NCBI RefSeq assembly: GCF_000015585.1
Contig: NC_008789.1
Span: 1,710,001-1,742,000 of the forward strand
Direction of reading: 5' to 3'
Length of the DNA: 32,000 bases
From: Halorhodospira halophila SL1
GTDB lineage: Bacteria > Pseudomonadota > Gammaproteobacteria > Nitrococcales > Halorhodospiraceae
This document shows positions 1-13,563 of this stretch, one piece after another. A program made the position numbers and the translations under genes. The notes beneath the pieces were generated by a model. The model was not told where the DNA came from. It was given only the letters and a program-made list of their open reading frames with translations, and did not search any database. Numbering within the stretch: the first letter of the stretch is position 1; every line of letters begins with the position of its first letter.

Positions 1-617
1 ACCCCACTTCCCGGAACGTACTCCTGGACCATCCACTCGGTACCCCACGCGCTGTGGGCGTTCAGAAAATCCTGCAGCTCGCTGTGTCGATTAAAATAGC
101 GGATGCGTACCGGACTGGGCCTGCCACGATCTGAGGGTTTAACCACAACCGGGAAATGCAGATTTTCAATCCAGCTCTCTGGCTCTTCATCGGCGCGAAT
201 GTAAAGGGTCCGCGGCATAGGCACCCCGAGACGCTCGGCTACAGCTAGGGTTCCCGACTTATCCAGAACGCTTCGCGCCCGCTCTTTGTCCGGGTACATG
301 CGCAGAATGCGCTCACCGAGTACGTCATCACAAGCCGCTAAAGCGCTAAGAGCACCATCGCCGACTGGCACTACGGTATCGATACCGTAGCGATCAACAG
401 CCCCAAGGAGGCTCTCACAGAAAGCATCAAGCGAGTCATCTGGATGCTCGAGCGTCAGATATCCTTCGAGGGCTTTCGTTTTGATTGACGCTCCCTCGCC
501 GGAAAAACAAGCCCCATAGACTGGGATTCCCTTGCCACTCAGACAACGCGCGACGGGCACCACAATCCGCGGGAAATGCCCCAGCAGCAGGGTGGCAGGC
601 GGTCTGTCAATCTTCAT
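1..617 (-). CDS. ATP-grasp family ligase, N-terminal ~205 codons (3' end runs off the left edge)
   Basis: Absent from the ORF track because it is open at the window edge. Hand translation from ATG 617..615 gives MKIDRPPATLLLGHFPRIVVPVARCLSGKGIPVYGA...LHFPVVVKPSDRG...WMVQEYVPGSG with no stop. It is colinear with, and clearly paralogous to, the N-terminus of the 4117..6204 protein (MKPPVASTLILGACPRIVVPIGHCLRQRGIPVVAG...FPFPVIIKPADK...WLIQEHVSGYG). The ATG abuts the upstream stop (TGAATG). Confidence 0.7.
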   Translation of the reverse strand, partial: MKIDRPPATLLLGHFPRIVVPVARCLSGKGIPVYGACFSGEGASIKTKALEGYLTLEHPDDSLDAFCESLLGAVDRYGIDTVVPVGDGALSALAACDDVLGERILRMYPDKERARSVLDKSGTLAVAERLGVPMPRTLYIRADEEPESWIENLHFPVVVKPSDRGRPSPVRIRYFNRHSELQDFLNAHSAWGTEWMVQEYVPGSG

Positions 618-1532
618 TCAGCACCCATCACGACGGCTCGCTTCAAGCCACTGCAGCGTCCATTCCGCCACCTGATTGCGCCAGACGGCACGAGAGAAGG
701 TGTGATCCGCTCCCTCCAGGCGGCGGGTAGTAACTCGTTCCTGATCAAGCAGCCCAAGCCACGAGTCGTTTCGTGTCGCCGTATCGACAAACTCGGCCGC
801 AGTCAGGTCGTCTCCGCTAAGCACGAGCAGGATCGGCCCGTCGAAGCGGCGCCAGCCGGCTGCCATGCGCACCGGGAGAGGATCCCCAGGGGCCAAACCT
901 GCTGACTGACCCTCCGGCCAATGGCCACGCCGCGCATTCGCCCGCAGGACAACAGCTACCTTTTCCATTAGCCCGCGGGCAGATCTCGTCAGACTGAGTC
1001 GCCCCGTGAGGAGGCGCATCCAGAAGTCCCCACTGAACAGTTGCCGCCAGTAGTAGTGGCGCAGATAAGCACTGGCAATCCCGGCCTCAGTGCGCACCCA
1101 AGGATTGAGGAGCACAAGCCCGCTGATTCGGCGATCCTGCGACGCATAGAGCAATGCCGCGGAGGCCGCATCACACAACCCCCAAACCACAACCTCGCGA
1201 ACCGCTGGAGTAAGCCGCTGAAACTCATCGATCGCGCAGCCGATATCCGTCTCTACAGCGTCGTAGCCGCGCTGCTCGCCACCCGCATCTCCCATGCCTC
1301 GATAGTCAAAACGAAAGACCGGAACCCCGTGCTCCGCTAGGTAGCGGGCGAGCAGGAGAAACTGTCGGTGACTACCGATCCGATACTGCGGACCACCGAC
1401 GACCAACAGAAGACCACGCTCAGCGCTTTGCAACGGGCGGTGGAGGATGCCGGGCAACTCTTCCCCTTCAATGCGGAAGACGGTCGCCTCCTCCAGTGCC
1501 TCAGCACAGGCTAGCCGTGTTGCACTTGCCAT
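618..1532 (-). CDS. alpha/beta hydrolase, exosortase A (PEP-CTERM/EpsH) system-associated hydrolase 1 type
   Basis: 304 aa. The string LLVVGGPQYRIGSHRQFLLLARYLAEHGVPVFRFDYRGMGD...VVVWGLCDAASAALLYA...LLNPWVRTE matches my recollection of the hydr1_PEP family (TIGR03100). Nucleophile elbow is G-L-C-D-A (Cys120, codon 1175..1173), and a GADHTF His motif lies near the C-terminus. GAGGAAA RBS precedes the ATG. The gene overlaps the upstream gene by 22 nt. Confidence 0.8.
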   Translation of the reverse strand: MASATRLACAEALEEATVFRIEGEELPGILHRPLQSAERGLLLVVGGPQYRIGSHRQFLLLARYLAEHGVPVFRFDYRGMGDAGGEQRGYDAVETDIGCAIDEFQRLTPAVREVVVWGLCDAASAALLYASQDRRISGLVLLNPWVRTEAGIASAYLRHYYWRQLFSGDFWMRLLTGRLSLTRSARGLMEKVAVVLRANARRGHWPEGQSAGLAPGDPLPVRMAAGWRRFDGPILLVLSGDDLTAAEFVDTATRNDSWLGLLDQERVTTRRLEGADHTFSRAVWRNQVAEWTLQWLEASRRDGC

Positions 1533-2329
1533 CGCGTGGTTTCCTCAATCAAGGCAGGTGCCGTACCAATCTCCTGGGTTGCCCAAAACGGCTCCCCGGG
1601 GAGGGCTTGTGCCTCCACCCGCACTTCTTGACTGCGCCAGCCCTGAACGATCCGCTGGCTAGCCGGAGAGAGCGAAGCCCCGCTTCCCTCCTCCTCACTA
1701 GAGCCGGACACCTCCAACCACAGAACTGAATCAGCCGGCGGCTGAAGGCGCGCACGATTAAGGGCTGCAGCTAACTGCGGGTGCAGAGTGTAGCCGGCAA
1801 TCTCCAGGGGCTCGCCCTGTTCCAACCGCTCTCGCAACGCTCGCGTAGTCTCGGCCGCCTCGCCGTTGAGCATGCCAGAAGCCATCCTCAGGCGTAAGAA
1901 TTGAGTCAAAAAGTGCTGACCATTGACCACCGGCTGCCAGAGTATGACGCCCCGCAGCGAAAAAGGCAGCCGTTCGGCCAAGTCAACCGCCAGCAGACAT
2001 CCCGCGCGCAAGCCCCATAAGGTTACCGGCCCTGGGTAGCAGTCCATGACCTCAGAAAGGCCGTCGGCCAAGTCGTCGACCCATAGTTCCCAACGACCGT
2101 CGGCGAAGTCACCGCCGCTATCACCGCAGCCGTAACAATCAGGCACAAGCACCGCCCACCCCTCGCGAGCCAGGGCGCGGGCTTGTTGCGCGATCATGCG
2201 CCGCGATTTGTTCAGCTCTTCCGCGAACGGCGGAGTGTGGAGAACAACCCCGCGAGGCTGGCGATCTTGAGGCAGAAACAAAACCTCGAAGAGGGAGCCC
2301 TGGCGACCCGCCCGAAACCTAGGGTGCAT
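1511..2329 (-). CDS. alpha/beta-fold protein, exosortase A system-associated hydrolase 2 type
   Basis: PPFAEELNKSRRMIAQQARALA...DCYGCGDSGGDF...VTLWGLRAGCLLAVDLA...LWQPVVNG..FLTQFLRLR...PFWATQEI matches my recollection of hydr2_PEP (TIGR03101). The track ORF starts at TTG 2365. ATG 2329 (MHPRF...) avoids overlap with the ACP gene; ATG 2359 is an alternative. Confidence 0.78.
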   Translation of the reverse strand: MHPRFRAGRQGSLFEVLFLPQDRQPRGVVLHTPPFAEELNKSRRMIAQQARALAREGWAVLVPDCYGCGDSGGDFADGRWELWVDDLADGLSEVMDCYPGPVTLWGLRAGCLLAVDLAERLPFSLRGVILWQPVVNGQHFLTQFLRLRMASGMLNGEAAETTRALRERLEQGEPLEIAGYTLHPQLAAALNRARLQPPADSVLWLEVSGSSEEEGSGASLSPASQRIVQGWRSQEVRVEAQALPGEPFWATQEIGTAPALIEETTRWQVQHG

Positions 2330-2336
2330 TGCCGCA

Positions 2337-2591
2337 CTAGAGTTCGTTGATCTTCCCATCAACAAAGTCTGCCAAGCTACCTAAAGTGGCGAAGGTCTCA
2401 CCACTGACCTCGTCATCCTCAATGATGAAACCAAAGCGCTCCTCGCAGGCCGTAAGCACTGAGACAACCGCCATGGAATCCAACTCCGGCAACGCTCCCA
2501 ACAGCGCGGTGTCACGATCAAAACGCTTAGCACGCCCACCTAAGCTTAGCGTAGCGTCCAAGATCCCTTTGACTTCCTCAATACTCGACAT
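2337..2591 (-). CDS. acyl carrier protein (dedicated, EPS-cassette associated)
   Basis: 84 aa from ATG 2591, with GGAG 5 nt upstream; the track ORF begins at TTG 2612. Phosphopantetheine attachment context is LGALPELDSMAVVSVL, on an acidic four-helix-sized protein. Confidence 0.8.
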   Translation of the reverse strand: MSSIEEVKGILDATLSLGGRAKRFDRDTALLGALPELDSMAVVSVLTACEERFGFIIEDDEVSGETFATLGSLADFVDGKINEL

Positions 2592-2915
2592 GCGAACTCC
2601 ACTCTCCATCAATTCGTTCCGGCAAACCCCAAGCTGTTCAGGGACACTTTAAGCCAAGCGTAGCATCCTCAAGCACCCTGCTCGGGCTTGAAGGACGTCT
2701 ACCAGACACCAAGCGGGCCAACGCGATCTCGCGGTCGCCTGGAGCGCAGCTCAAGAGTGACTACACTGAGGGCACCAGACGCGAGGATAGGCTCTCGGTC
2801 GCGCCGCAGCCAGCACCTTGAACGCGTTGCGGTCGGATCGACGACTCAAGGAAGGACGTATTGGCGAACATGACCATGTTCTTTTACCGAGATAGGCAGC
2901 TAGCAGCCGCCAGGT

Positions 2916-2930
2916 TGGCACCCCGCTTCC
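2916..2930 (+). promoter_or_regulatory. candidate sigma-54 (-24/-12) promoter for the GT4 / ATP-grasp-PTP operon
   Basis: TGGCAC-CCCGC-TTCC versus consensus TGGCAC-N5-TTGC. Spacing is correct and the -24 element is perfect, but the -12 GC reads CC. It lies 68 nt upstream of ATG 2998. Confidence 0.3.
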
Positions 2931-2997
2931 ATGTAACCAGGTCTCTTCGGCCTTCTTCAGTATCCTGCCTAACCGCACAAGGGACGGTCCCCTCGGC

Positions 2998-4083
2998 ATG
3001 AGGATCCTGTTTGTCTCCACGCTCAGTCACATCCCACAGCGAGCGAGCGGGGCCAATAGCTCAACCGATCAGCTCTGCCGCGGACTCTCATCGAGGGGGC
3101 ACCACGTGGCTGTCCTATCGAGTCTGAGAGGTGGAGACCGACTCGCTTGGTGGAACCGCCTACGGCACCACCTGACACCGGGGCAGAACCTCCCACCGGA
3201 CCGGGCATGCGGCTACCTGACCTACCGCGGTTATGCTCCCCTGAAAGATCTCGATGAGGCCTTGGGTGACTTCCGGCCCGACATTGCCGTTGCTGATGTC
3301 GGAAAGACCAGCCGTATCGCTGAAGCGCTACGGGCGCGCAGAGTCCCCACAGTGGCCTATCTACGCGACCTGGAACCGGAGACGTTCTCGGATCACCCCG
3401 TCACTGATCCACAGGTGAGCTTCATCGCCAATTCTCAGTTCACTGCCTCAGCCTATGCACAGCACCGCGACCTCCAGTGTCAGATTATCCGCCCGCTGGT
3501 TCACCCGGAGTATTACCGCGTGAATTCAACGCGCGAAGTCGCACTCCACATCAACCCCTCCCCGAAGAAAGGCATCGACATCACGCTGAATCTGGCCGAG
3601 GCTCGCCTGGACATCCCGTTCCTGCTGGTCGAAACCTGGAGTCTGGCGCGCGAGCTGCGCGAGCACTACCGCCGCCGTGCCGCCGAATTGCCCAACGTGC
3701 GTGTCGTCCCGACTCAAAGGGATATGCGAGCCTATTACGGGCGCACCCGGGTCGTCCTGGCGCCGAGTATCTGGCCGGAGACTTGGGGTCGCATTGCTAC
3801 AGAGGCTCATATCAGCGGCATCCCGGTCTTGGCCAGCACACGCGGCGGCCTGCCCGAGTCGGTGGGTCCGGGCGGAACGCTGCTGGATCCCGAAGCGCCT
3901 TTGGAGCAGTGGGTCGAGGCCCTCGGCAGGCTTTGGGACGATAGGACGGTCTACGCAAGGCTAAGCCGTGCCGCCCTGGACCACGCCGACCGGCCGGAGA
4001 TTCACCCCAAACGGGTTTTGGATGACTTTTCAGGCGTTCTCGAACAAACCCGCGCGATGGCCACAGCGTCGACTCCCGCCTAA
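2998..4083 (+). CDS. glycosyltransferase family 4 (GT-B, retaining)
   Basis: 361 aa. C-terminal E-x7-E signature ETWGRIATEAHISGIPVLASTRGGLPESVGPGG is typical of GT4/GT1 sugar transferases. Confidence 0.85.
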   Translation: MRILFVSTLSHIPQRASGANSSTDQLCRGLSSRGHHVAVLSSLRGGDRLAWWNRLRHHLTPGQNLPPDRACGYLTYRGYAPLKDLDEALGDFRPDIAVADVGKTSRIAEALRARRVPTVAYLRDLEPETFSDHPVTDPQVSFIANSQFTASAYAQHRDLQCQIIRPLVHPEYYRVNSTREVALHINPSPKKGIDITLNLAEARLDIPFLLVETWSLARELREHYRRRAAELPNVRVVPTQRDMRAYYGRTRVVLAPSIWPETWGRIATEAHISGIPVLASTRGGLPESVGPGGTLLDPEAPLEQWVEALGRLWDDRTVYARLSRAALDHADRPEIHPKRVLDDFSGVLEQTRAMATASTPA

Positions 4084-4116
4084 GCCACGGCCACGGGGCA
4101 AAGGAGCACCCCAAGG

Positions 4117-6204
4117 ATGAAACCGCCCGTCGCTTCCACGCTGATCCTCGGCGCCTGCCCACGCATTGTCGTCCCGATCGGGCACTGCCTGCGCCAGCGC
4201 GGGATTCCCGTCGTGGCCGGCTCACTGTTGCCAGGCAGACCGGCCATCCGCAGCCGCACCCTGCGCGAGTTTCGGCGGCTTACGCCACCCTCGCTGTGCC
4301 AGGACACGTTCCGGGAGGAGTTGAATCGGCTGATCGTCGACCACAACGTCGACACCCTGATCCCCACCGGCGACGAGGTGCTGACCGCGCTGGCCCGCGA
4401 AGAAGCCTTTTGGCGCCAGCGCCTCCACGTCTGCAGCCCCCGCTGGGCGGTCGCCCGGCAGGCCCTGGACAAGGCAGAGATTGCACGGCTGGCCGAGGAA
4501 CGTGGCATGGCGTGTCCGCGCAGCCTGCTCGTCCGTCGGTCCGAGGATATCGAGCACCTGCCCAATGACTTCCCCTTCCCGGTCATCATCAAGCCCGCTG
4601 ACAAAACTCGGAGCAACCAGCTGCGCCTGCGCAGCTTCGACGAACCGAGCGCCCTCAAACGCTTCGTTGCCCGATACGCCCGGGCGGAGGAGCCGTGGCT
4701 GATCCAAGAGCACGTTAGCGGTTACGGCTTGGGGATCGCGGCGTTGATGCACGACGGCGAGCCGCTGACCCTGTTCCAGCACAGCCGGCTTAAGGAGTAC
4801 CCGATCACCGGCGGGGTGGCCACACGCTGTGTTGCCCAACCGGTCGATCCCGGGCTTCGAGAGCAGACGATTGAACTGCTGGGCGCCCTCCGTTGGCAGG
4901 GCATAGCCATGGTCGAGTACCGCTACAATCCGATGACCGACCGCAACGTGCTTATTGAAGTCAACGGCCACTACCAGGAGTCCGTGGCCCTCCCGCTCCA
5001 TTGCGGGGTCAACCTGCCCTGGTACGAGTGGCAGCTCGCTCACGGGCAACACCCGCAGCCTGCGGGTTACCGGCCAGGGCGACGGCTGCGGTGGCTGGCC
5101 GGGGATCTGCAGCGCCTGCCGGAGGCCGCGGGGGCAGTCGTCGCCGGGGAGATTCCGATCCGGCAGGCGGCCCACGATACCCTCACCCTCTTCACCGACT
5201 TCCTGGCGCCCTGCACCCACGATGCCCTATGGCGATTCCGAGATCCGCTCCCCGCGCTGGACGAGCTCAACCGGGCCTTACGCCAGGTCGGCACCAAGGT
5301 GTTGCGGAAATTCGGCAAGCTGACCCTGCCGCAGCGCGGGTACCAGTCCTTGGACCGGATGATTGCCCTCGGGCCGCGCGGAGCGTGGCAATACGGGCGG
5401 CTAAGCCGCAGCAGTCCACCGACCCCGCCGGAGCCACAAGAGCTACGAAAGGTACGCACGATCCTGTTCATCTGCCACGGCAATATCGCCCGGAGTGCCA
5501 TGAGCGCTGCATGGCTGCGCAGCGCGCTGCAGGAGCGGGGCGCGGAGCACGTGACAGTGGAATCAGCCGGGGTCTCAGCATCGGATGGCAAGGGCGCCGA
5601 TCCGGATGCCGCCGGGGCAGCGCCCTGCTTTGGCATCTCGCTTGAGTCCCACCGGGCCCGTCGCGTCACCGCCGCCCATGTGGCTGCGACCGACGCCATC
5701 TTCGTGATGGACTACCTGAACTGGGTGCGCCTCATGCGGCACTTCCCGGAGGCGAACGGGAAGACCTGGCTACTCGGCAGCCTGGACCCGGAGGCAGGTC
5801 GTTTGGCCGAGTACGGAGCGGAAATCCGCGACCCCTATGGGCAAGGTAGGCGCCAGACCGAGGCCTGCTTCTTGCAAATCGTCGCCTGCCTGCAGGAACT
5901 GCTCCGACATCTAACGGGCTCAGAACAGACTAAGCCCTCCCCTCCGTTAAGAGATGTCCCCCCCCACCTCTTACTAGCGCGCCCTCTTAACGCCGCCCCG
6001 ATTCGCGAACCCGGAACCCGTCACCGTCCGGCTCGGCGTACTGCGCAAGCCAATCGCGTAACGCCGGGTCGGCACCTTCGCGGGTCGTCACCGTGGCATC
6101 GAGATGGTAGCTGCCGTCTCGCGAGACCTGCCATTGGCCGTCCAGTGCGACGGGGCCGCCCTGGTCGTGGACCTCTCCGTAGGCACGGTTGTCCGAGCTG
6201 CTGA
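4117..6204 (+). CDS. ATP-grasp ligase fused to a C-terminal low-molecular-weight protein-tyrosine phosphatase (Wzb-like) domain; 3' end uncertain
   Basis: Residues ~1-400 are the ATP-grasp part (FPVIIKPADK, WLIQEHVSGYG, MVEYRY..., LIEVNGHYQES). A Pro-rich linker (SSPPTPPEPQ) follows. The LMW-PTP P-loop is C-H-G-N-I-A-R-S (Cys453, TGC 5473..5475) and the general-acid loop is IRDPYG (Asp572, 5830..5832). AAGGAG RBS at 4100..4105. The last ~80-95 codons are Arg/Pro-rich with atypical A/T-ending codons and overlap the convergent gene by 218 nt. Confidence 0.75.
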   Translation: MKPPVASTLILGACPRIVVPIGHCLRQRGIPVVAGSLLPGRPAIRSRTLREFRRLTPPSLCQDTFREELNRLIVDHNVDTLIPTGDEVLTALAREEAFWRQRLHVCSPRWAVARQALDKAEIARLAEERGMACPRSLLVRRSEDIEHLPNDFPFPVIIKPADKTRSNQLRLRSFDEPSALKRFVARYARAEEPWLIQEHVSGYGLGIAALMHDGEPLTLFQHSRLKEYPITGGVATRCVAQPVDPGLREQTIELLGALRWQGIAMVEYRYNPMTDRNVLIEVNGHYQESVALPLHCGVNLPWYEWQLAHGQHPQPAGYRPGRRLRWLAGDLQRLPEAAGAVVAGEIPIRQAAHDTLTLFTDFLAPCTHDALWRFRDPLPALDELNRALRQVGTKVLRKFGKLTLPQRGYQSLDRMIALGPRGAWQYGRLSRSSPPTPPEPQELRKVRTILFICHGNIARSAMSAAWLRSALQERGAEHVTVESAGVSASDGKGADPDAAGAAPCFGISLESHRARRVTAAHVAATDAIFVMDYLNWVRLMRHFPEANGKTWLLGSLDPEAGRLAEYGAEIRDPYGQGRRQTEACFLQIVACLQELLRHLTGSEQTKPSPPLRDVPPHLLLARPLNAAPIREPGTRHRPARRTAQANRVTPGRHLRGSSPWHRDGSCRLARPAIGRPVRRGRPGRGPLRRHGCPSC

Positions 6205-6775
6205 CCGACGACACCACACTGCCCAGATCCAACCGTTCGCCTTCGTGGGTGACAGTCAAATCACGGCCTGTGACGCGCCCCTCAACCGACCGGAGCTCGC
6301 CGTCGTTGCTCAAGGACAGGCGATCGATCTGGTAGGCGACCGTACCGCTAACCGGCGGCAGTTCGACCCCGCGCTGGCTTGCCATCTGGCGCAGGCGATC
6401 CATAGAGACCTCGCCGCTCCCCTCAGAGACTTGCCAGCCGCCAGCCGAGCGAGTGGCCACCCCCTGGAAACGGGCGTCGTCGAGACTACCGTCCAGGTCC
6501 ACCTTCAGCCGACCAGCGACCAGGGAGCGACCCTGAACCTCCCAGGCGACATCCAGGGTGCCGGGGTCCACCCCCCAGAGCCGGGGGATTTCAAGCCGCT
6601 GCACCCGTCCTGCGCGCAAGCTGCCCTCCACCTCCGCTCTGCCCCAGGCAGCCGGAACCGGGAGGTGGCGTTCGGCGGCGTTCCAGGCTGACCCCGCGGG
6701 GATATGGCCGACGGCGTAGACGGTCCCGGCGACCAGACCCAAGAGAAGCAGCACCGTGATGACAAGCTTTCTCAT
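5987..6775 (-). CDS. GspN-like (type II secretion protein N family) membrane-anchored periplasmic protein, orphan
   Basis: 262 aa with an N-terminal TM anchor (MRKLVITVLLLLGLVAGTVYAV). The overall pattern and the C-terminal LRDWLAQYAEPDGDGFRVRESGRR resemble GspN/EpsN proteins as I remember them (W-L...G...SGR ending). No other gsp genes are nearby. Confidence 0.5.
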   Translation of the reverse strand: MRKLVITVLLLLGLVAGTVYAVGHIPAGSAWNAAERHLPVPAAWGRAEVEGSLRAGRVQRLEIPRLWGVDPGTLDVAWEVQGRSLVAGRLKVDLDGSLDDARFQGVATRSAGGWQVSEGSGEVSMDRLRQMASQRGVELPPVSGTVAYQIDRLSLSNDGELRSVEGRVTGRDLTVTHEGERLDLGSVVSSVSSSDNRAYGEVHDQGGPVALDGQWQVSRDGSYHLDATVTTREGADPALRDWLAQYAEPDGDGFRVRESGRR

Positions 6776-6841
6776 GCGCTCTGACCTGCTGGTTCGTTGA
6801 AGGCGGCGGCGCGCCGATCGATACCCCGCCGCAGGGGTCGA

Positions 6842-7381
6842 TCAAGGCCGGAGCAGTTCCATCAGCCGCTCCTGCCGGGTCGCCACGGCTTCTCGATCGG
6901 CATCGGGCACCGAAGCGAGGAAGTCCGTCACCCGCTCCCGCTGCGCCTTGATGTCGGCAATGATTTCGCCCTTGGCGGCATCGCCGAGATGCGGATTCTC
7001 CTCGATCTGCTCGATGGCCCCCTCCAACTGGGCTTGTAATTCCCGCGGGTCGCCGGCCTCCAAAGCGATCAGCGCGCGGTAGATCCGCGCGCCCTCTTCC
7101 GCCCAGGCCGCAGCCCCTTCATAGCCGTATAGTTCGAGCGCTGACGCCGGATCTTCCAGCGTCTTGGCTGCCTCTCGGAAAGCCGTCTCGCTCTTGCCCA
7201 CACCGCGCAGCTCACTCGCCGGGTGCCAATCTTCCATGCCCTGCTCCGCCGCGTGGTCATGCAGGGCGCCGACGGCCTCCTGCCACTGCTCGACTCGCTC
7301 GGGGGTCAGGGCCAGCGCCATCCCGGGCACGAGCCCCCCGAGCAATGTCAGCGCGGTCACCAAAGCGCAGCGGTTGCCCAT
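6842..7381 (-). CDS. secreted hypothetical protein (predicted all-helical, acidic)
   Basis: 179 aa from ATG 7381, with GGAG 7 nt upstream; the track ORF starts at TTG 7387. Signal peptide ALVTALTLLGGLVPGMALA|L. Strong G/C third-position bias. No family recognised. Confidence 0.6.
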   Translation of the reverse strand: MGNRCALVTALTLLGGLVPGMALALTPERVEQWQEAVGALHDHAAEQGMEDWHPASELRGVGKSETAFREAAKTLEDPASALELYGYEGAAAWAEEGARIYRALIALEAGDPRELQAQLEGAIEQIEENPHLGDAAKGEIIADIKAQRERVTDFLASVPDADREAVATRQERLMELLRP

Positions 7382-7468
7382 AGGCAAACTCCAGTCATTT
7401 GCATGTTTCGGCCGGAGGGTATCAGCCTACGCAGCCTGCCGCTCGGGAGCATGTGTGGGCCAATGGAT

Positions 7469-8668
7469 TTAGCGCATCCCGTGCTTAGCCAGCAGCTCGT
7501 AGATCGTTGGCCGCGTAACTCCCAGTTCCGTCGCTGCGCGCGAGATGTTCCCGTTGCACCGGCCCAAGGCCTCGGCGACGACGCGTCGCTCCGCCTCATC
7601 GCGCACCTCGCGCAACCTGGGCAGATCCCGCTGAACGGTCAGAGAACGCGGCAGCGGCAGCCCGAGGTCTTCGGCACGAATGGCACCTCCCTCCGAGAGG
7701 ATCACCGCTCGCCGGAGCGCGTTTTCCAGTTCACGAACGTTGCCAGGCCAGCGATAGGCGGCGATCACGGCCAAGGCATCACTGCCCAGCTTCCGCGCTC
7801 GGGCCTTGTGCTGCCGGACCATTCCTTTGAGAAGCGCGTGGGCAATCAGTGCGGGATCTCCTGGCCGCTCGCGCAGGGGCGGAAGCCGCAGTTGAACCTC
7901 GGCAACCCGGTAATAGAAGTCGTCACGGAACGCTCCCTCTCCCATCCGCTCGACCAAGTCCCGGTTGGTCGCGCAAACCACCCGGACGTCCACCGGGATC
8001 TCTCGTCGCCCCCCCAAGCGCTGAACCGTCCGCTGTTGCAGGAAGCGCAGCAGCTTCGCCTGAACCTCCAGGGGCAACTCTCCGATCTCGTCGAGGAATA
8101 GGGTTCCCCCATTGGCACGCTCGATCCGCCCCACCCGGGCCCGGTAGGCCCCCGTAAAGGCGCCACGCTCAAACCCGAACAGCTCACTCTCAAGCAGTTC
8201 CGAAGGGATCGCGGCGCAGTTAATCGCCTCCAGCGGAGCAGCGGATCGCACTCGGTTCAGCCCATGCAGAGCCTTCGCAAAGAGCTCCTTCCCGGTGCCA
8301 CTCTCACCGAGAAGCAGGACGGTAGCATCCGAGGGAGCGAGCCGCTCCGTATCCCGACAAAGCTGGATCATGCGCGGGTCACCGGTCACCAAGCCCAGCC
8401 GGCGTGGCCCCGCATCGCCAGATGGGCTCCGCCCCCGGCCCAGCGGTGCGTCAGACTCTTCATACCGGTCCGGATCCGCCCCTTCGGAAAGCGCCCTTTC
8501 CACAGCCCGGATCAGCGGTGCGGCGGCTTCCGGCTCCACGTAGAAACCCGCCTCAAGGGGGATCGAAGTCGCACCAGCCGACCGCGCTCTTCCCACCCGC
8601 AACCCCTGCCCCTCTTCAATGAGGTACCAGACCCTGGAGCTGGCCTCGGTACTTTCCGCTACGGCCAT
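7469..8668 (-). CDS. sigma-54-dependent transcriptional activator (bacterial enhancer-binding protein, Fis-type HTH)
   Basis: Walker A GESGTGKE, Walker B LFLDEIGEL, sigma-54 contact motif GAFTGA, and C-terminal HTH ISRAATELGVTRPTIYELLAKHG. The ~105-aa N-terminal region has no receiver-domain Asp pocket. Start taken at ATG 8668 (GGGAGG upstream); the track ORF starts at TTG 8728. Confidence 0.9.
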   Translation of the reverse strand: MAVAESTEASSRVWYLIEEGQGLRVGRARSAGATSIPLEAGFYVEPEAAAPLIRAVERALSEGADPDRYEESDAPLGRGRSPSGDAGPRRLGLVTGDPRMIQLCRDTERLAPSDATVLLLGESGTGKELFAKALHGLNRVRSAAPLEAINCAAIPSELLESELFGFERGAFTGAYRARVGRIERANGGTLFLDEIGELPLEVQAKLLRFLQQRTVQRLGGRREIPVDVRVVCATNRDLVERMGEGAFRDDFYYRVAEVQLRLPPLRERPGDPALIAHALLKGMVRQHKARARKLGSDALAVIAAYRWPGNVRELENALRRAVILSEGGAIRAEDLGLPLPRSLTVQRDLPRLREVRDEAERRVVAEALGRCNGNISRAATELGVTRPTIYELLAKHGMR

Positions 8669-8782
8669 CGCTTTGAGACCTCCCTGGCGGTCCGCACTCC
8701 GGAATACGTCCCCGGTTAACGGAGCCAAGAACCCGCGCTAGATACTAGGGGAATGGCACTGGGCGGCTCGGCAGCCCGGTAA

Positions 8783-8835
8783 AACCCCAGCGGGACCCGG
8801 AGGCGCGGGACGGAACCCCGTGGACCGCTGGGGTT
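8783..8835 (-). terminator. long GC-rich stem-loop followed by T-tract (putative terminator of the lipoprotein gene, or a structured 5' element of the EBP gene)
   Basis: Arms AACCCCAGCGG (8783..8793) and CCGCTGGGGTT (8825..8835) give 11 perfect bp around a 31-nt GC-rich interior. On the minus strand the stem is followed by TTTTACC. Confidence 0.35.
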
Positions 8836-8985
8836 AAACAGCTATGGTAAAAATAGCACTTGGCAAGGGAGAAGCCAGCGCTCGGTTCACGCTAGCCCCT
8901 TGTGGGGAACAGCAGCGTGGGCACCGGCGATCCGACCCTTAACCTGATTTTTTTCAGGGCACCCCCTTGAGAAGATGCACTGGAC

Positions 8986-9177
8986 TCAATAACCGGCGTC
9001 CTCGCCGGCATCCTCAGCATCCTCGCCAGCCTCTTCGAGGGAGTCACCCGCCTCTTCGACCGCATCATCCACTTCCTCGCCTGCGTCCTCCGCCGGCCCG
9101 CTGTTGCAGCCACTTAGCGCGACGAGGAACAGTCCCATCACCAACGCGATACCGATTGCTTTTAGATATTTCATCAT
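8986..9177 (-). CDS. small polyanionic lipoprotein
   Basis: 63 aa with lipobox L-S-G-C and an excellent RBS (CAGGAGAG). The mature 40-aa part, CNSGPAEDAGEEVDDAVEEAGDSLEEAGEDAEDAGEDAGY, has 17 Asp/Glu, no basic residue, and reiterated (E/D)(E/D)AG units. Confidence 0.65.
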   Translation of the reverse strand: MMKYLKAIGIALVMGLFLVALSGCNSGPAEDAGEEVDDAVEEAGDSLEEAGEDAEDAGEDAGY

Positions 9178-9461
9178 GATTACTCTCCTGGTTTTTCCAC
9201 CTTCAGAATCGGAAACACCCCTTTCGGAGGAACCAGCCTAGGGGGGACTTCGGCTTCTCGTCTGTCTGCTATCGAACAAAACCCGGTTGCAAACAATCCG
9301 GTTTTGGTGGCACCCCCATACTGGCGAAATTCCACAAGGCCTGTGTGGATGCCGCACCCAGCCGTCAATTATTCTGGACAGCTGATAGCAAAATCGTACT
9401 TGCAGTGCACGCGTTTTTGTCTAGGTTGAGTTCAGGGCGCGCAGGCCGCACGAGGTCACCC

Positions 9462-10436
9462 ATGGACCCGGTACAGCAGATGGAACTCGGCGACAGACTC
9501 ATGCTCCACAATCCAGTAAGGATCACCAATACCGCTTGCAGTGGAACTTGCCCGCAGAGAAAGCTGGATATACTCCAGCAAGTCGCCGGCATCGGCTTCT
9601 GGGAGCTTGACCTGAAAACCGGTCATGTCTGGCTCGATGGCCGTTTACAGGAGATCTACGGCCTCTCTCCCGGAGAGAACAACCTGGGGATCGAACTGAG
9701 GACTTGGCGTAAGTATGTCCATCCAGAGGACCAACCACGGGTTCAGCAGGGTTTCTGGCGCGCCGCCGAGTTAGCTTTACCCTGGCGCCTGCAGTTCCGT
9801 GCCATCCGCCCAGACCAACAGGTGCGGCACATCCGCTCCGAGGGTCGACTTGAACCGATCCCGAACGACCAGTCCGTATACTTTGTCGGGTTTGAGGAAG
9901 ACGTCACCGACCGCGTGGCCCTTGAGCAGGAACTGGAGCGGCAAGCCCAGCAGGATGGGCTGACTGGCACCTATAACCGCCGAAAGATGGACAACCTCCT
10001 CCACCAGGAGCGCGAGCGGGCGATTCGGTACCGCCAGCAGCTGACGGCCATGCTCATCGACGCGGACGGTTTTAAGGCTATCAACGACAACTACGGGCAC
10101 GAGGCCGGCGATGAACTTCTTCACGATCTCGTGCACTGTTGTTTCCGCCCGTGCCTGCGCACCATCGATCACCTCGGGCGCTGGGGTGGTGACGAGTTCC
10201 TCGTAATCCTTCCGGAGACCTCGGAAGAGGCCGCTTATCACGTTGCGGAGCGCATCCGTGACCAGGTCGAGACGCTCCAACCGGGCCCGGGGGCAATTAC
10301 CGTGAGCATCGGGATCTCGGCCTACCAACCGGAGGAATCACCCCGGGACTGGTTGCGCAGTGCGGATTTCGCTCTGTACGAGGCCAAGCGCGGGGGACGC
10401 AACCGAATCACCCGCTACCGTTCACCACCCGCGTGA
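9462..10436 (+). CDS. PAS-GGDEF diguanylate cyclase with intact I-site
   Basis: PAS fold (GFWELDLKTGHVWLDGRLQEIYGL...). GGDEF active site RWGGDEFLVIL, with RTID exactly 5 residues upstream (RxxD inhibitory site). Start at ATG 9462 (GAGG 8 nt upstream); the track ORF starts at GTG 9345. Confidence 0.9.
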   Translation: MDPVQQMELGDRLMLHNPVRITNTACSGTCPQRKLDILQQVAGIGFWELDLKTGHVWLDGRLQEIYGLSPGENNLGIELRTWRKYVHPEDQPRVQQGFWRAAELALPWRLQFRAIRPDQQVRHIRSEGRLEPIPNDQSVYFVGFEEDVTDRVALEQELERQAQQDGLTGTYNRRKMDNLLHQERERAIRYRQQLTAMLIDADGFKAINDNYGHEAGDELLHDLVHCCFRPCLRTIDHLGRWGGDEFLVILPETSEEAAYHVAERIRDQVETLQPGPGAITVSIGISAYQPEESPRDWLRSADFALYEAKRGGRNRITRYRSPPA

Positions 10437-10667
10437 ACCGCGCCCTGCACTAACGCCCCCGCTTTCTCCTAAGCCCTCGGGGCAGACAGGCGCAGCTGCG
10501 GCGTCTCATCCGCGACAATACTCACTATTGCCCACCGCTGCCTCTTTCGTGCAGACCTTTCTGGTTTTCTGCTACGGCTTGAACGCGCCGCAGACAGGCT
10601 GCCCGCATCGGCCTCCGTGCGCCCAGGCTGTAGAATGTCGCCCGTTGCAGGTACCAAGGAGCCCCCC

Positions 10668-11519
10668 ATGGCCAACCGCTACGATCGCCCCCCGCACCCG
10701 GAAGGCCCCTTCAACGCCGACCGCGTGGCCGATAGCGATCCCCCCGAGCAGGAAGAGCTGGGGGCGTTCCAGGAGCGCATGCGCTTCCGGGCCCGGGAGC
10801 GTACGCTGCTGTTCCTTGGCGCGCTGGGGGTTGCCGCCGTCCTGGTGCTGGCAACGCGCCACGAGCCCCAGATCGCTGAGTTCATGAACGCCAGTGCAGA
10901 GGCGGTCGGGGTCGCGCTGCTGGGCCTGACGATCGGAGCCATCGTCCTCTGGGGCTACACCCTGCACCAGCTCATGGACCCGATCTTCGGTGATGTCCTG
11001 GGGGCACGCGGCGACCTGGAGGTGATTGACCCCGATGTGCCCGATTATCGCCGCCTGCTGATCGTAGCGGCGCTCATCAACCAGGCAGCGACCGGCTACT
11101 TCCGCGCTCTGCGCGAGACCTGCGACCGCGAGGTCCGGCTCGGTGATCTACGCGCCCTCCGCCAGTATCTGCGCCAGCTAAAGAACCCGAACCTGGCCGG
11201 CGCCGCCGCACCACCACCCACCCCCCAGGACGACTGGGAGCGAGGATACGTGGTGTGGTCGGAGCACAGTTACCGGTTCTACCTGGATGAGCTGGATACG
11301 CTGGACTACATCGAGTTCCTCGACGGGGACCTGGAAGGGGTCTCCCTCTACTTCGGCCGCCCCGGAGAAGGGAGCTTCCCCTACGAGATCGTCACCTGCC
11401 CAGACGTAGTCCGAGAGGCCTTCGGTAGCCAGAGCGGCCTGGAGGAGCGGATCGACGAAGAGCTGGAGGATGTGCTGGAGGTCTTCGGCGGCTGGGGGCA
11501 GGACTTGGTGCTCTATTAG
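10668..11519 (+). CDS. hypothetical membrane protein (two TM helices, acidic C-terminal domain)
   Basis: 283 aa from ATG 10668, preceded by AAGGAG. TM segments are TLLFLGALGVAAVLVLAT and AVGVALLGLTIGAIVLWGYTL. G/C third-position bias is consistent with coding. No family recognised. Confidence 0.7.
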   Translation: MANRYDRPPHPEGPFNADRVADSDPPEQEELGAFQERMRFRARERTLLFLGALGVAAVLVLATRHEPQIAEFMNASAEAVGVALLGLTIGAIVLWGYTLHQLMDPIFGDVLGARGDLEVIDPDVPDYRRLLIVAALINQAATGYFRALRETCDREVRLGDLRALRQYLRQLKNPNLAGAAAPPPTPQDDWERGYVVWSEHSYRFYLDELDTLDYIEFLDGDLEGVSLYFGRPGEGSFPYEIVTCPDVVREAFGSQSGLEERIDEELEDVLEVFGGWGQDLVLY

Positions 11520-11527
11520 CCACCGAG

Positions 11528-11556
11528 TGAGGCCACCGTTTTGGGCGGTGGCCTCA
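11528..11556. terminator. perfect 11-bp hairpin between convergent genes (bidirectional terminator candidate)
   Basis: TGAGGCCACCG-TTTTGGG-CGGTGGCCTCA, located 9 nt after stop 11519 and 14 nt before stop 11570. No flanking U-tract on either strand. Confidence 0.45.
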
Positions 11557-11569
11557 GGGTGACCGATCT

Positions 11570-11770
11570 CTAGCCGAAGACCATCGGGTACCACACGAAG
11601 CCGATGATGGTGCTCAAACCAACCACCAGGAAAGCGTGGAGCAGCACCCGGCGATAGCCCAGGTACATGCCGAGCAGCAACCCCAGGGTGGGCAGCAGCA
11701 CGGCGCTCAGATAGGCAACCACCATCAGCCAGGTGGGCACCGATCCCCGTCTCGCAGCAGATTCCGCCAT
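11570..11770 (-). CDS. small hypothetical membrane protein
   Basis: 66 aa from ATG 11770 (AGGGAG upstream), with two hydrophobic helices (WLMVVAYLSAVLLPTLGLLLGMYLG, LLHAFLVVGLSTIIGFVWY). The track's GTG 11815 start would overlap the tRNA terminator. Confidence 0.5.
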   Translation of the reverse strand: MAESAARRGSVPTWLMVVAYLSAVLLPTLGLLLGMYLGYRRVLLHAFLVVGLSTIIGFVWYPMVFG

Positions 11771-11792
11771 CGGATACGCGCTCCCTAAAACG

Positions 11793-11837
11793 AAAAAACC
11801 CCCGTCGGCGGACACTGACGTGCACGCTGAGCGGGGG
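11793..11837 (-). terminator. stem-loop plus T6 tract downstream of tRNA-fMet
   Basis: On the minus strand: CCCCCG (27-nt loop) CGGGGG followed by TTTTTTCGTTTT. The stem is only 6 GC pairs and the loop is large, so this is tentative. Confidence 0.4.
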
Positions 11838-11850
11838 CTCGGCTCGAATT

Positions 11851-11927
<77 letters not shown>

Positions 11928-12029
11928 ACTGTTGGCGCGCATTTTATGCACCCAGTCGCTTGGCGTCAATTCATCCTGACGCGGAGCGGAACGTTGGTTG
12001 CCGTCGGGCGATCCGACCAGAATGGAGCC

Positions 12030-13488: not shown

Positions 13489-13548
13489 GGGGTTCCACCT
13501 CCGAAACGGCTAATCAATGTTCCCCAGTCGGGGCTCACGGAGGTGGTA

Positions 13549-13563
13549 GCAATCCCTGTGCCA
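13549..13563 (-). promoter_or_regulatory. sigma-54 promoter (glnAp2 type)
   Basis: The minus strand reads TGGCAC-AGGGA-TTGC, a perfect -24/-12 consensus, about 60 nt upstream of the glnA ATG. Confidence 0.8.

Follow-up and report, generated by a model that had tools for sequence, protein, structure and literature searches.

A complete exosortase-A-associated carrier-protein module with a genus-specific ATP-grasp add-on in Halorhodospira halophila SL1, at the right-hand end of a low-GC exopolysaccharide island

Introduction

According to the published logic of carrier-bound amino acid decarboxylation, glutamate or aspartate is tethered to a carrier protein through its side-chain carboxyl, and the loading enzyme is either an ATP-grasp ligase (BtrJ, CtaD) or the adenylating enzyme FlvN. 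A pyridoxal phosphate (PLP) enzyme (BtrK, CtaF, FlvO) decarboxylates the amino acid on the carrier to give a 4-aminobutyryl (GABA)- or beta-alanyl-S-carrier, and the acyl group is then passed on by BtrH or CtaG, transacylases that work with a Cys-His-Asp triad (PMC11350588; PMC7183216). Here we analysed a stretch of 32,000 nucleotides (nt) of H. halophila SL1 (NC_008789.1, positions 1,710,001 to 1,742,000 of the forward strand; hereafter the window). Its left part encodes a dedicated acyl/peptidyl carrier protein (ACP) and two alpha/beta-hydrolase-fold proteins, hydrolase 2 (hydr2) and hydrolase 1 (hydr1), of exosortase-A-associated families. This trio is accompanied by two ATP-grasp ligases, one of them fused to a low-molecular-weight protein tyrosine phosphatase (LMW-PTP).

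In the original prediction, made from the sequence letters, these genes were described as an uncharacterised cassette for which no biochemical precedent was known. Literature searches for functional work on the hydrolase/ACP module of exosortase loci found nothing, and none of the characterised pathways contains this alpha/beta-hydrolase pair; the module is a biochemical orphan, as described. Modules of its kind are, however, already catalogued, and NCBI/GenBank naming already marks the protein as exosortase-A-associated; what is particular to Halorhodospira is a genus-specific arrangement. Nor is the chemistry without precedent, since BtrI/J/K and CtaD/E/F are reconstituted systems of ACP, ATP-grasp and PLP decarboxylase (PMC7183216, PMC11350588). 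Clustering of the hydrolase-1 family (TIGR03100) at 90% identity gives at least 7,948 clusters (E <= 1e-10). Nitrifiers, methanotrophs and purple sulfur bacteria carry it, as do floc-forming sludge bacteria. For this very widespread family, a specific and testable mechanism is proposed below.

Materials and methods

Open reading frames (ORFs) of the window were listed and translated, and the window proteins were scanned with NCBIfam and Pfam profiles. Matches to TIGR03100, TIGR03101, TIGR03098 and TIGR03099 were read against the curated cutoffs given in Table 1. DNA to the left of the window was taken from L001, a 20.9-kb locus of another H. halophila assembly, in which window position equals 11533 minus L001 position; window and L001 together cover 41 kb of the 2.68-Mb genome around the locus.

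For the hydrolase-1 census, 18 diverse homologues were aligned and 80 loci from different species were fetched; the H. halophila proteins, together with profiles of homologues of the fusion protein, were used to score them. A second set was anchored on the ATP-grasp family outside Halorhodospira and consisted of seven loci with up to 10 kb on each side, one of them as gene calls only: six fusions among L004-L006 and L087-L090, and the stand-alone ATP-grasp of L093. A further stand-alone relative, which is more distant (31% identity), was covered by its gene calls. The locus L091, from other Halorhodospira species, was used for comparison.

Results

The five-gene exosortase-A-associated module is complete in H. 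halophila and split into two blocks

As shown in Table 1, two divergent gene arms flank an intergenic region. On the minus arm, the ACP stop lies 7 nt from the called hydr2 start, hydr2 and hydr1 overlap by 22 nt, and a TGAATG joins the hydr1 stop to the start of the stand-alone ATP-grasp gene in an arrangement of translational coupling; on the plus arm, a GT4-family glycosyltransferase gene is followed by the ATP-grasp::LMW-PTP fusion. The ORF, NCBIfam and Pfam results confirmed the genes, junctions and motifs of both arms as originally predicted, and the 406-nt region, the overlap and the TGAATG were exact. Both hydrolases matched the exosortase-associated TIGR03100 and TIGR03101 models far above the curated cutoffs, which excludes chance matches, and the NCBI names agree with the assignment of the pair and its ACP to these families.

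To the left of window position 1, L001 showed, in order, the remainder of the ATP-grasp gene and convergent genes for a FemAB-like Acetyltransf_6 protein, a DegT aminotransferase and a GT2 glycosyltransferase. After GT2 came a PLP decarboxylase and an AMP-forming ligase, both above the cutoffs of TIGR03099 and TIGR03098 and located 4-7 kb left of window position 1, and then sulfotransferase and ABC transporter genes. Because the TIGR03098 and TIGR03099 genes are found a short way left of the window, the canonical five-gene exosortase-A-associated module is complete in H. halophila, split into two blocks. The original idea that ATP-grasp ligases take the place of the ligase and the decarboxylase was therefore abandoned: that contrast arose because the window edge cut off both genes, and the apparent new wiring is the product of this edge and a genus-specific rearrangement. 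The same check to the left was also meant for an EpsH exosortase and PEP-CTERM proteins. These were not seen in the 41 kb of the 2.68-Mb genome that were covered: none of the genes called in L001 and L091 matched the Pfam model Exosortase_EpsH, and a regex search of the window, L001 and L091 returned no PEP-CTERM-like tails.

Table 1. Positions of the features discussed (window coordinates unless a locus is named)
Feature	Position	Strand	Basis or remark
Stand-alone ATP-grasp ligase, PF15632-type, N-terminal 205 aa of a 412-aa protein	1..617	-	profile match; gene cut by window edge, full gene L001 10916-12154
TGAATG, hydr1 stop and ATP-grasp start	620-615		
hydr1, TIGR03100	618..1532	-	340 bits (cutoff 168.45); model positions 2-273 of 274
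hydr2/hydr1 overlap	1511-1532		22 nt
hydr2, TIGR03101	1511..2329, ORF extends to 2365	-	288.4 bits (cutoff 202.75); model positions 1-264 of 266
Dedicated ACP, 84 aa	2337..2591	-	PP-binding match; invariant D38-S39 phosphopantetheine site
Divergent intergenic region, 406 nt	2592..2997	.	between ACP and GT4
Sigma-54-like -24/-12 box	2916-2931	+	3' end 66 nt upstream of GT4 ATG
GT4-family glycosyltransferase	2998..4083	+	Glycos_transf_1 and Glyco_transf_4
ATP-grasp::LMWPc fusion, 695 aa	4117..6204	+	ORF and Pfam
ATP-grasp domain of fusion, PF15632-type	4117..5316	+	E-x-N metal motif LIEVNGH
LMW-PTP domain of fusion	5461..5904	+	PF01451 (LMWPc) 86 bits, residues 449-596
Arg/Pro-rich C-terminal extension of fusion, 86 aa	5944..6204	+	absent from homologues; antisense into T2SS-N gene
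Type II secretion system (T2SS) protein-N gene	5987-6775	-	convergent with fusion
181-aa protein, hydrophobic signal-like N-terminus	6842-7387	-	ORF; no family match
Sigma-54 enhancer-binding protein related to PEP-CTERM-box regulator PrsR	7469..8728	-	TIGR02915 428.9 bits, below cutoff of 502.6; model positions 139-445 only
tRNA-Met gene	11851-11927	-	
glnA sigma-54 promoter	13548-13563	-	perfect consensus
PLP decarboxylase, TIGR03099	L001 15596-16831		590.9 bits (cutoff 478)
AMP-forming ligase, TIGR03098	L001 16828-18417		710.4 bits (cutoff 592)
Separate LMW-PTP gene and overlapping Acetyltransf_6 gene	L091 14331-16090	-	
PTP and ATP-grasp homologues in four short ORFs	L040 15179-16885	+	Nitrosomonadaceae
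Four-gene block	L004 6462-11884; L006 6623-11893; L088 6324-11887; L093 2428-7584		XrtA-type polysaccharide loci, metagenomic contigs

The decarboxylase and the ligase resemble carrier-dependent amino acid enzymes

In a sequence search of solved structures, the best relative of the module decarboxylase was BtrK of butirosin biosynthesis, which decarboxylates the L-glutamyl group on the BtrI ACP. The match reached 290 bits (E 3e-85) with an alignment that spans residues 22-410 of 411; the best diaminopimelate (DAP) decarboxylase in the same search reached 155 bits. The PLP lysine was kept in 27/27 homologues. This homology to BtrK strengthens the reading of an aminoacyl group on the ACP, which had been put forward in the original prediction as an ACP-tethered decoration and which is reasonable. 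The best solved relatives of the ligase were adenylation domains of nonribosomal peptide synthetases and stand-alone aminoacyl-ACP synthetases, and the Asp of its A4-like SFDYG motif was likewise kept in 27/27 homologues. The A4 Asp of adenylation domains binds the amino group of the substrate. The link between the decarboxylase and BtrK makes the function of the module testable, as a Glu- or Asp-loaded ACP is predicted to lose 44 Da.

Conserved residues of the carrier protein and the two hydrolases

The serine of the ACP motif ELDSM was invariant in 75/75 homologues. In hydr1, the nucleophile-elbow residue Cys120 was Cys in all 81 sequences, and Asp242 and His277 were invariant in the homologue alignment; in the AlphaFold2 (AF2) model (pLDDT 84), Cys120 is placed at a strand-helix elbow, between strand 113-119 and helix 121-130. 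Judged from these residues, we read hydr1 as a putative thioester-forming acyltransferase that off-loads the ACP. The position of Cys120 is taken in hydr2 by Arg108, which was Arg in 78/78 homologues, and the alignment of hydr2 homologues contained no invariant His. The invariant Arg at the nucleophile position together with the lack of an invariant His suggested that hydr2 is probably a non-catalytic partner, which looks like a pseudo-enzyme and not a hydrolase at all. Candidate targets for mutation can be predicted accordingly for both proteins, namely the Cys-Asp-His triad of hydr1 and the Arg that replaces the nucleophile in hydr2.

Sequence and fold searches of hydr1 against the PDB returned generic relatives only (feruloyl esterases, lipases), and the same searches with the ATP-grasp gave biotin carboxylase, L-amino-acid ligases, PylC and 2pn1. 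As these matches are generic, no specific function can be transferred from them to either protein.

A proposed sub-module of ATP-grasp, LMW-PTP and FemAB-like genes

The two ATP-grasps are true paralogues, as predicted, with 42% identity over 403 aa (E 8e-104). Their Pfam and precomputed matches were PF15632, PF02786 and PF07478, and the TupA-like ATP-grasp model was never among them. Foldseek with the AF2 model of the fusion (pLDDT 89, pTM 0.80) gave the best target coverage for 2pn1, which has no assigned function, followed by L-amino-acid ligases and PylC; the modelled fold is compatible with a carboxylate-amine ligase. An exhaustive search (E <= 1e-30) found 266 clusters of the ATP-grasp family at 50% identity, and 72 of 129 full-length top family representatives carried the PTP domain. 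The fusion architecture of about 600-630 aa is kept in more than 30 clusters, and the ATP-grasp::LMW-PTP family passes no curated NCBIfam cutoff.

The phosphatase domain appears intact: its C-X5-R-S loop (CHGNIARS) and general-acid loop (IRDPY) are present, and CX5R[ST] was intact in 72/72 fused homologues. Both domains of the fusion were thus as predicted, and a small correction concerns its last 86 aa, which continue beyond the end of a 75%-identical Halorhodospira homologue (609 aa) and of all other homologues and overlap the convergent T2SS-N gene by 218 nt. This extension is probably a read-through after loss of a stop codon, not functional sequence.

The census of trio loci showed a strongly conserved core. 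ACP, hydr2 and hydr1 had the same order on one strand in 74/74 loci holding all three. Within 10 kb, ligase and decarboxylase were found together at 23/80 hydr1 loci (16 of the 46 with full flanks), a FemAB-like gene at 18/80 and a FemAB-like plus DegT pair at 13/80. An ATP-grasp of the present family occurred within this distance at just 4/80 (L014, L040, L056, L072), and in none of these was it coupled to hydr1. The neighbourhood comparison therefore did not bear out ATP-grasps as regular flanking genes. The original proposal of a functional unit in which they are wired to the trio was not supported from the other side either, as no ACP, hydr1 or hydr2 gene was present within the 10 kb or less covered on each side in the seven ATP-grasp-anchored loci outside Halorhodospira. 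In L087, the fusion gene is preceded by an ORF of 85 aa, which was considered as an ACP and rejected, since it has no DS motif. Coupling of the ATP-grasp to hydr1 was seen only in Halorhodospira, where the ACP-hydr2-hydr1-ATP-grasp operon is kept in other species of the genus (L091). The ATP-grasps next to the trio represent a lineage-specific addition and do not count among the regular partners of the trio.

The usual neighbour of the ATP-grasp is a different gene. An Acetyltransf_6/FemAB-like gene precedes it, directly or one gene away, in 6/7 loci outside Halorhodospira, and a FemAB-like GNAT gene is at most one gene away in 5/6 fusion loci of that set; the count is 8/11 ATP-grasp loci when the distant relative and two Halorhodospira loci are included. 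The distant relative itself lies in a non-polysaccharide context and has no FemAB-like gene among its gene calls. Four loci (L004, L006, L088, L093) share a block of WecB epimerase, terpene-cyclase-like gene, Acetyltransf_6 and ATP-grasp, PTP-fused except in L093, and one of them, L006, is a bona fide XrtA-type locus with TIGR03013, TIGR03006 and TIGR03019 all above cutoff. The terpene-cyclase-like protein of about 400 aa has weak SQHop_cyclase_C similarity, and neither it nor the second FemAB-like paralogue matched NCBIfam at E <= 1e-10.

L091 encodes the LMW-PTP (222 aa) in a gene of its own, and a 4-nt overlap joins the start of this gene to the end of the Acetyltransf_6 gene. The associations of the PTP therefore include GNAT besides ATP-grasp. 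From the rarity of the family at trio loci, its FemAB-like neighbours elsewhere and this PTP-GNAT overlap, we conclude that ATP-grasp, LMW-PTP and FemAB-like GNAT constitute a sub-module of their own, whose junction with the trio is genus-specific. In one metagenome-assembled genome (L040), the homologues of PTP and ATP-grasp are fragmented, with four short ORFs in their place; the cause is either decay into a pseudogene or indel errors from long-read assembly.

A proposed mechanism and the alternatives to it

With moderate confidence, we consider the observations as a whole to be best explained by thiotemplated aminoacyl decoration by the five-gene module plus a separate ATP-grasp sub-module. 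The five-gene module probably makes a small amino-acyl decoration, and we infer its substrates, step order and acceptor as follows. The adenylation-domain-like ligase would load Glu or Asp onto the ACP via the side-chain carboxyl, and the BtrK-like decarboxylase would remove the alpha-carboxyl on the carrier to give 4-aminobutyryl- or beta-alanyl-S-ACP. Cys120 of hydr1 would then take the acyl group and hand it to an amine or hydroxyl of a lipid-linked repeat unit or of the polymer, with hydr2 as a putative partner that binds the ACP or the substrate and is not itself catalytic. DegT and FemAB-like genes are frequent neighbours, which suggests that the acceptor is an amino sugar. The sub-module of FemAB-like PF13480 GNAT, ATP-grasp and LMW-PTP would be separately mobile and would probably install an amide-linked amino-acid or amine decoration on a sugar, possibly including a dephosphorylation step; in the genus Halorhodospira, one ATP-grasp copy would have been inserted behind hydr1.

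Several points weigh against this explanation. To our knowledge, there is no biochemistry for any TIGR03098-03101 member, and the fold searches with ATP-grasp and hydr1 gave generic ATP-grasp and esterase matches only. A fatty-acid-CoA ligase model gives the ligase 305 bits as well, and the substrate proposed for this enzyme is a guess from its motif and relatives. The 41 kb that cover the H. halophila locus showed no exosortase, no PEP-CTERM protein and no bacterial tyrosine kinase (BY-kinase). Finally, because the ATP-grasp is coupled to hydr1 in Halorhodospira and this coupling is kept in a second species group, the ATP-grasp could act on an ACP-bound intermediate like BtrJ and CtaD.

As for the phosphatase, the LMW-PTP domain might be a Wzb-type phosphatase of a co-polymerase tyrosine kinase, in which case the fusion would be regulatory or incidental and no small molecule would be dephosphorylated; we regard this as possible, though rather unlikely. 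The intact C-X5-R-S and DPY loops and weak matches to the Wzb and Etp equivalog models fit such a role, the fusion locus L006 opens with a Wzz/GNVR/AAA_31 kinase gene and has no separate PTP, and published XrtA-type exopolysaccharide models include a kinase/phosphatase pair (bioRxiv 10.64898/2025.12.21.693542). Both of these matches, at 60 bits (cutoff 243) and 53 bits (cutoff 247), stayed below the curated cutoffs, and no Wzz/GNVR/AAA_31 gene was found among the called genes of the window or L001. Distant taxa keep the PTP fused to the ATP-grasp or in the same block, a pattern more typical of consecutive metabolic steps, and in L091 the PTP is coupled to the FemAB-like gene. A characterised analogue also needs a phosphatase after an ATP-grasp amidoligase: in Campylobacter jejuni, Cj1438C joins glucuronate to a phosphorylated amine, from which Cj1435 cleaves the phosphate (PMC11800379 and references 37-39 therein). 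This offers a rationale for an ATP-grasp::phosphatase fusion.

A second alternative concerns the ATP-grasps, which might be dedicated thiotemplated partners of the ACP like BtrJ and CtaD. They would load the carrier or else lengthen the aminoacyl chain bound to it, by a gamma-glutamyl cap or into an oligo-beta-alanine or GABA chain, ahead of off-loading by hydr1/hydr2. The TGAATG coupling, the operon shared with other Halorhodospira species and the BtrK-like decarboxylase within the same island all speak for it, and there are reconstituted precedents acting on carrier-bound substrates together with the BtrK/CtaF decarboxylase (PMC7183216). We nevertheless hold it doubtful, given that the family is near the trio at so few of the 80 loci and hydr1-coupled in none, that the trio is absent within the 10 kb or less covered on each side of the seven ATP-grasp anchors outside Halorhodospira, and that a dedicated adenylating ligase is already there for loading.

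More speculatively, the favoured thiotemplated decoration might serve protein attachment. The module would install an omega-amino-acyl handle (GABA or beta-alanyl), maybe extended by ATP-grasp and FemAB-like enzymes, whose free amine would be the long-sought nucleophile with which exosortase attaches cleaved PEP-CTERM proteins. We think this improbable; if true, the handle would correspond, in Gram-negative bacteria, to the pentaglycine bridge that FemXAB builds and sortase uses, and the hydr1-coupled ATP-grasp of Halorhodospira would be the third thiotemplated ATP-grasp to be described.

The TIGRFAM-style view takes free DAP, ornithine or lysine as the substrate of the decarboxylase and a diamine linker as the product, and regards the ligase as an ordinary acyl-CoA ligase for fatty-acyl decoration. 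It is very unlikely: it has TIGR01048 (lysA) at 258 bits on the decarboxylase and fatty-acid-CoA ligase models at about 300 bits on the ligase in its favour, but both scores fall under the curated cutoffs, the BtrK score is nearly twice that of any DAP decarboxylase, a dedicated ACP invariably adjoins the hydrolases, and CtaF refuses the free amino acid (PMC7183216).

Regulation and surroundings of the island

The GC content was 0.54-0.63 over the polysaccharide genes (window 1-4000 and L001 8000-20900) and 0.65-0.69 in the flanking housekeeping DNA. Such a drop is usual for islands of this type, and a GC content below that of the flanking DNA suggests that the polysaccharide genes were acquired horizontally as an island. 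The region is the right-hand end of this low-GC exopolysaccharide island of H. halophila SL1. From 9 to 32 kb, the window contains mostly housekeeping genes (glnA, HU, rnhA, minCD, htpG and others), and a tRNA-Met gene lies between the island side and glnA. The stretch from the polysaccharide genes to the sigma-54 regulator gene contains the T2SS-N gene and the 181-aa protein gene; no other T2SS gene was found in the window besides the isolated T2SS-N gene.

A sigma-54-like -24/-12 box, TGGCACCCCGCTTCCA, was located upstream of GT4. Sites with at most one mismatch to the sigma-54 consensus were found in the window only at TGGCACCCCGCTTCCA and at the glnA promoter, whose perfect consensus served as an internal control; the TGGCACCCCGCTTCCA box alone was not statistically significant, and it had no clear conserved counterpart at L091. 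The protein related to PrsR gave no Response_reg Pfam match and thus has no receiver domain. PEP-CTERM systems depend on RpoN and PrsR (PMC9850573). The PrsR-related protein is a candidate regulator of the island; its gene was placed 3.4 kb downstream of the fusion gene.

A sigma-70 promoter scan found no site in the 406-nt intergenic region, and a terminator scan remained at background level. Rfam search of window positions 1-12000 returned the tRNA-Met only, with no riboswitch or small RNA in the 406-nt region. One 11-nt repeat pair and one weak inverted repeat in this region were judged to be chance.

Discussion

Our results place the H. halophila genes within the XrtA/PEP-CTERM five-gene module: four curated families are above cutoff, the ACP-hydr2-hydr1 order is the one seen in the other loci, and the polysaccharide island carries FemAB-like, DegT, GT2, GT4 and sulfotransferase genes. 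The locus differs in that its ligase and decarboxylase lie 4-7 kb off, beyond three sugar-modification genes, in that an ATP-grasp is coupled to hydr1, and in that the 41 kb covered showed neither xrtA nor a PEP-CTERM gene. The analysis also led to the recognition of an ATP-grasp::LMW-PTP family captured by no curated NCBIfam model, whose closest members lie mostly beside FemAB-like GNAT genes in XrtA-type loci.

The butirosin pathway for the 4-amino-2-hydroxybutyrate side chain (BtrI/J/K/H) is similar in its small dedicated carrier, in a decarboxylase to which that of H. halophila aligns, in a sugar as the final acceptor and in an off-loading enzyme with a Cys/His/Asp triad; an ATP-grasp gene in the same operon is a likeness of gene content. 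In H. halophila, however, loading is presumably done by the AMP-forming ligase and not by an ATP-grasp, the off-loader is an alpha/beta-hydrolase pair whereas BtrH is papain-like, and genes for the BtrO/V hydroxylase and BtrG are absent.

VinN/L/O is a beta-amino-acid starter system of the FlvN/L/O kind, and systems of this Vin/Flv type share with H. halophila an adenylating loader. Closthioamide CtaD/E/F/G and FlvN/L/O resemble the proposed mechanism in the side-chain-tethered acidic amino acid, the on-carrier PLP decarboxylation and the Cys-dependent transacylase (PMC11350588). Their products are secondary metabolites, whereas the H. halophila genes stand in a polysaccharide context and the transferase has another fold.

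The C. jejuni HS:2 capsule glucuronamide system likewise has an ATP-grasp amide ligase, a PLP decarboxylase (Cj1436) and a phosphatase beside glycosyltransferases. Cj1438C is TupA-like, Cj1435 belongs to HAD and there is no ACP, while H. halophila has a PF15632-type ATP-grasp and an LMW-PTP; since the protein families differ, the resemblance is one of analogy and not of homology.

In the D-alanylation of teichoic acids by Dlt, DltA is the ligase, DltC the carrier, and DltB and DltD carry out the transfer. Dlt differs from the H. halophila module in that it has no decarboxylase, includes an MBOAT membrane component and is built from other protein families. The likeness lies in the overall plan, in which an adenylating ligase, a small carrier and a hydrolase-fold transfer component aminoacylate a surface glycopolymer.

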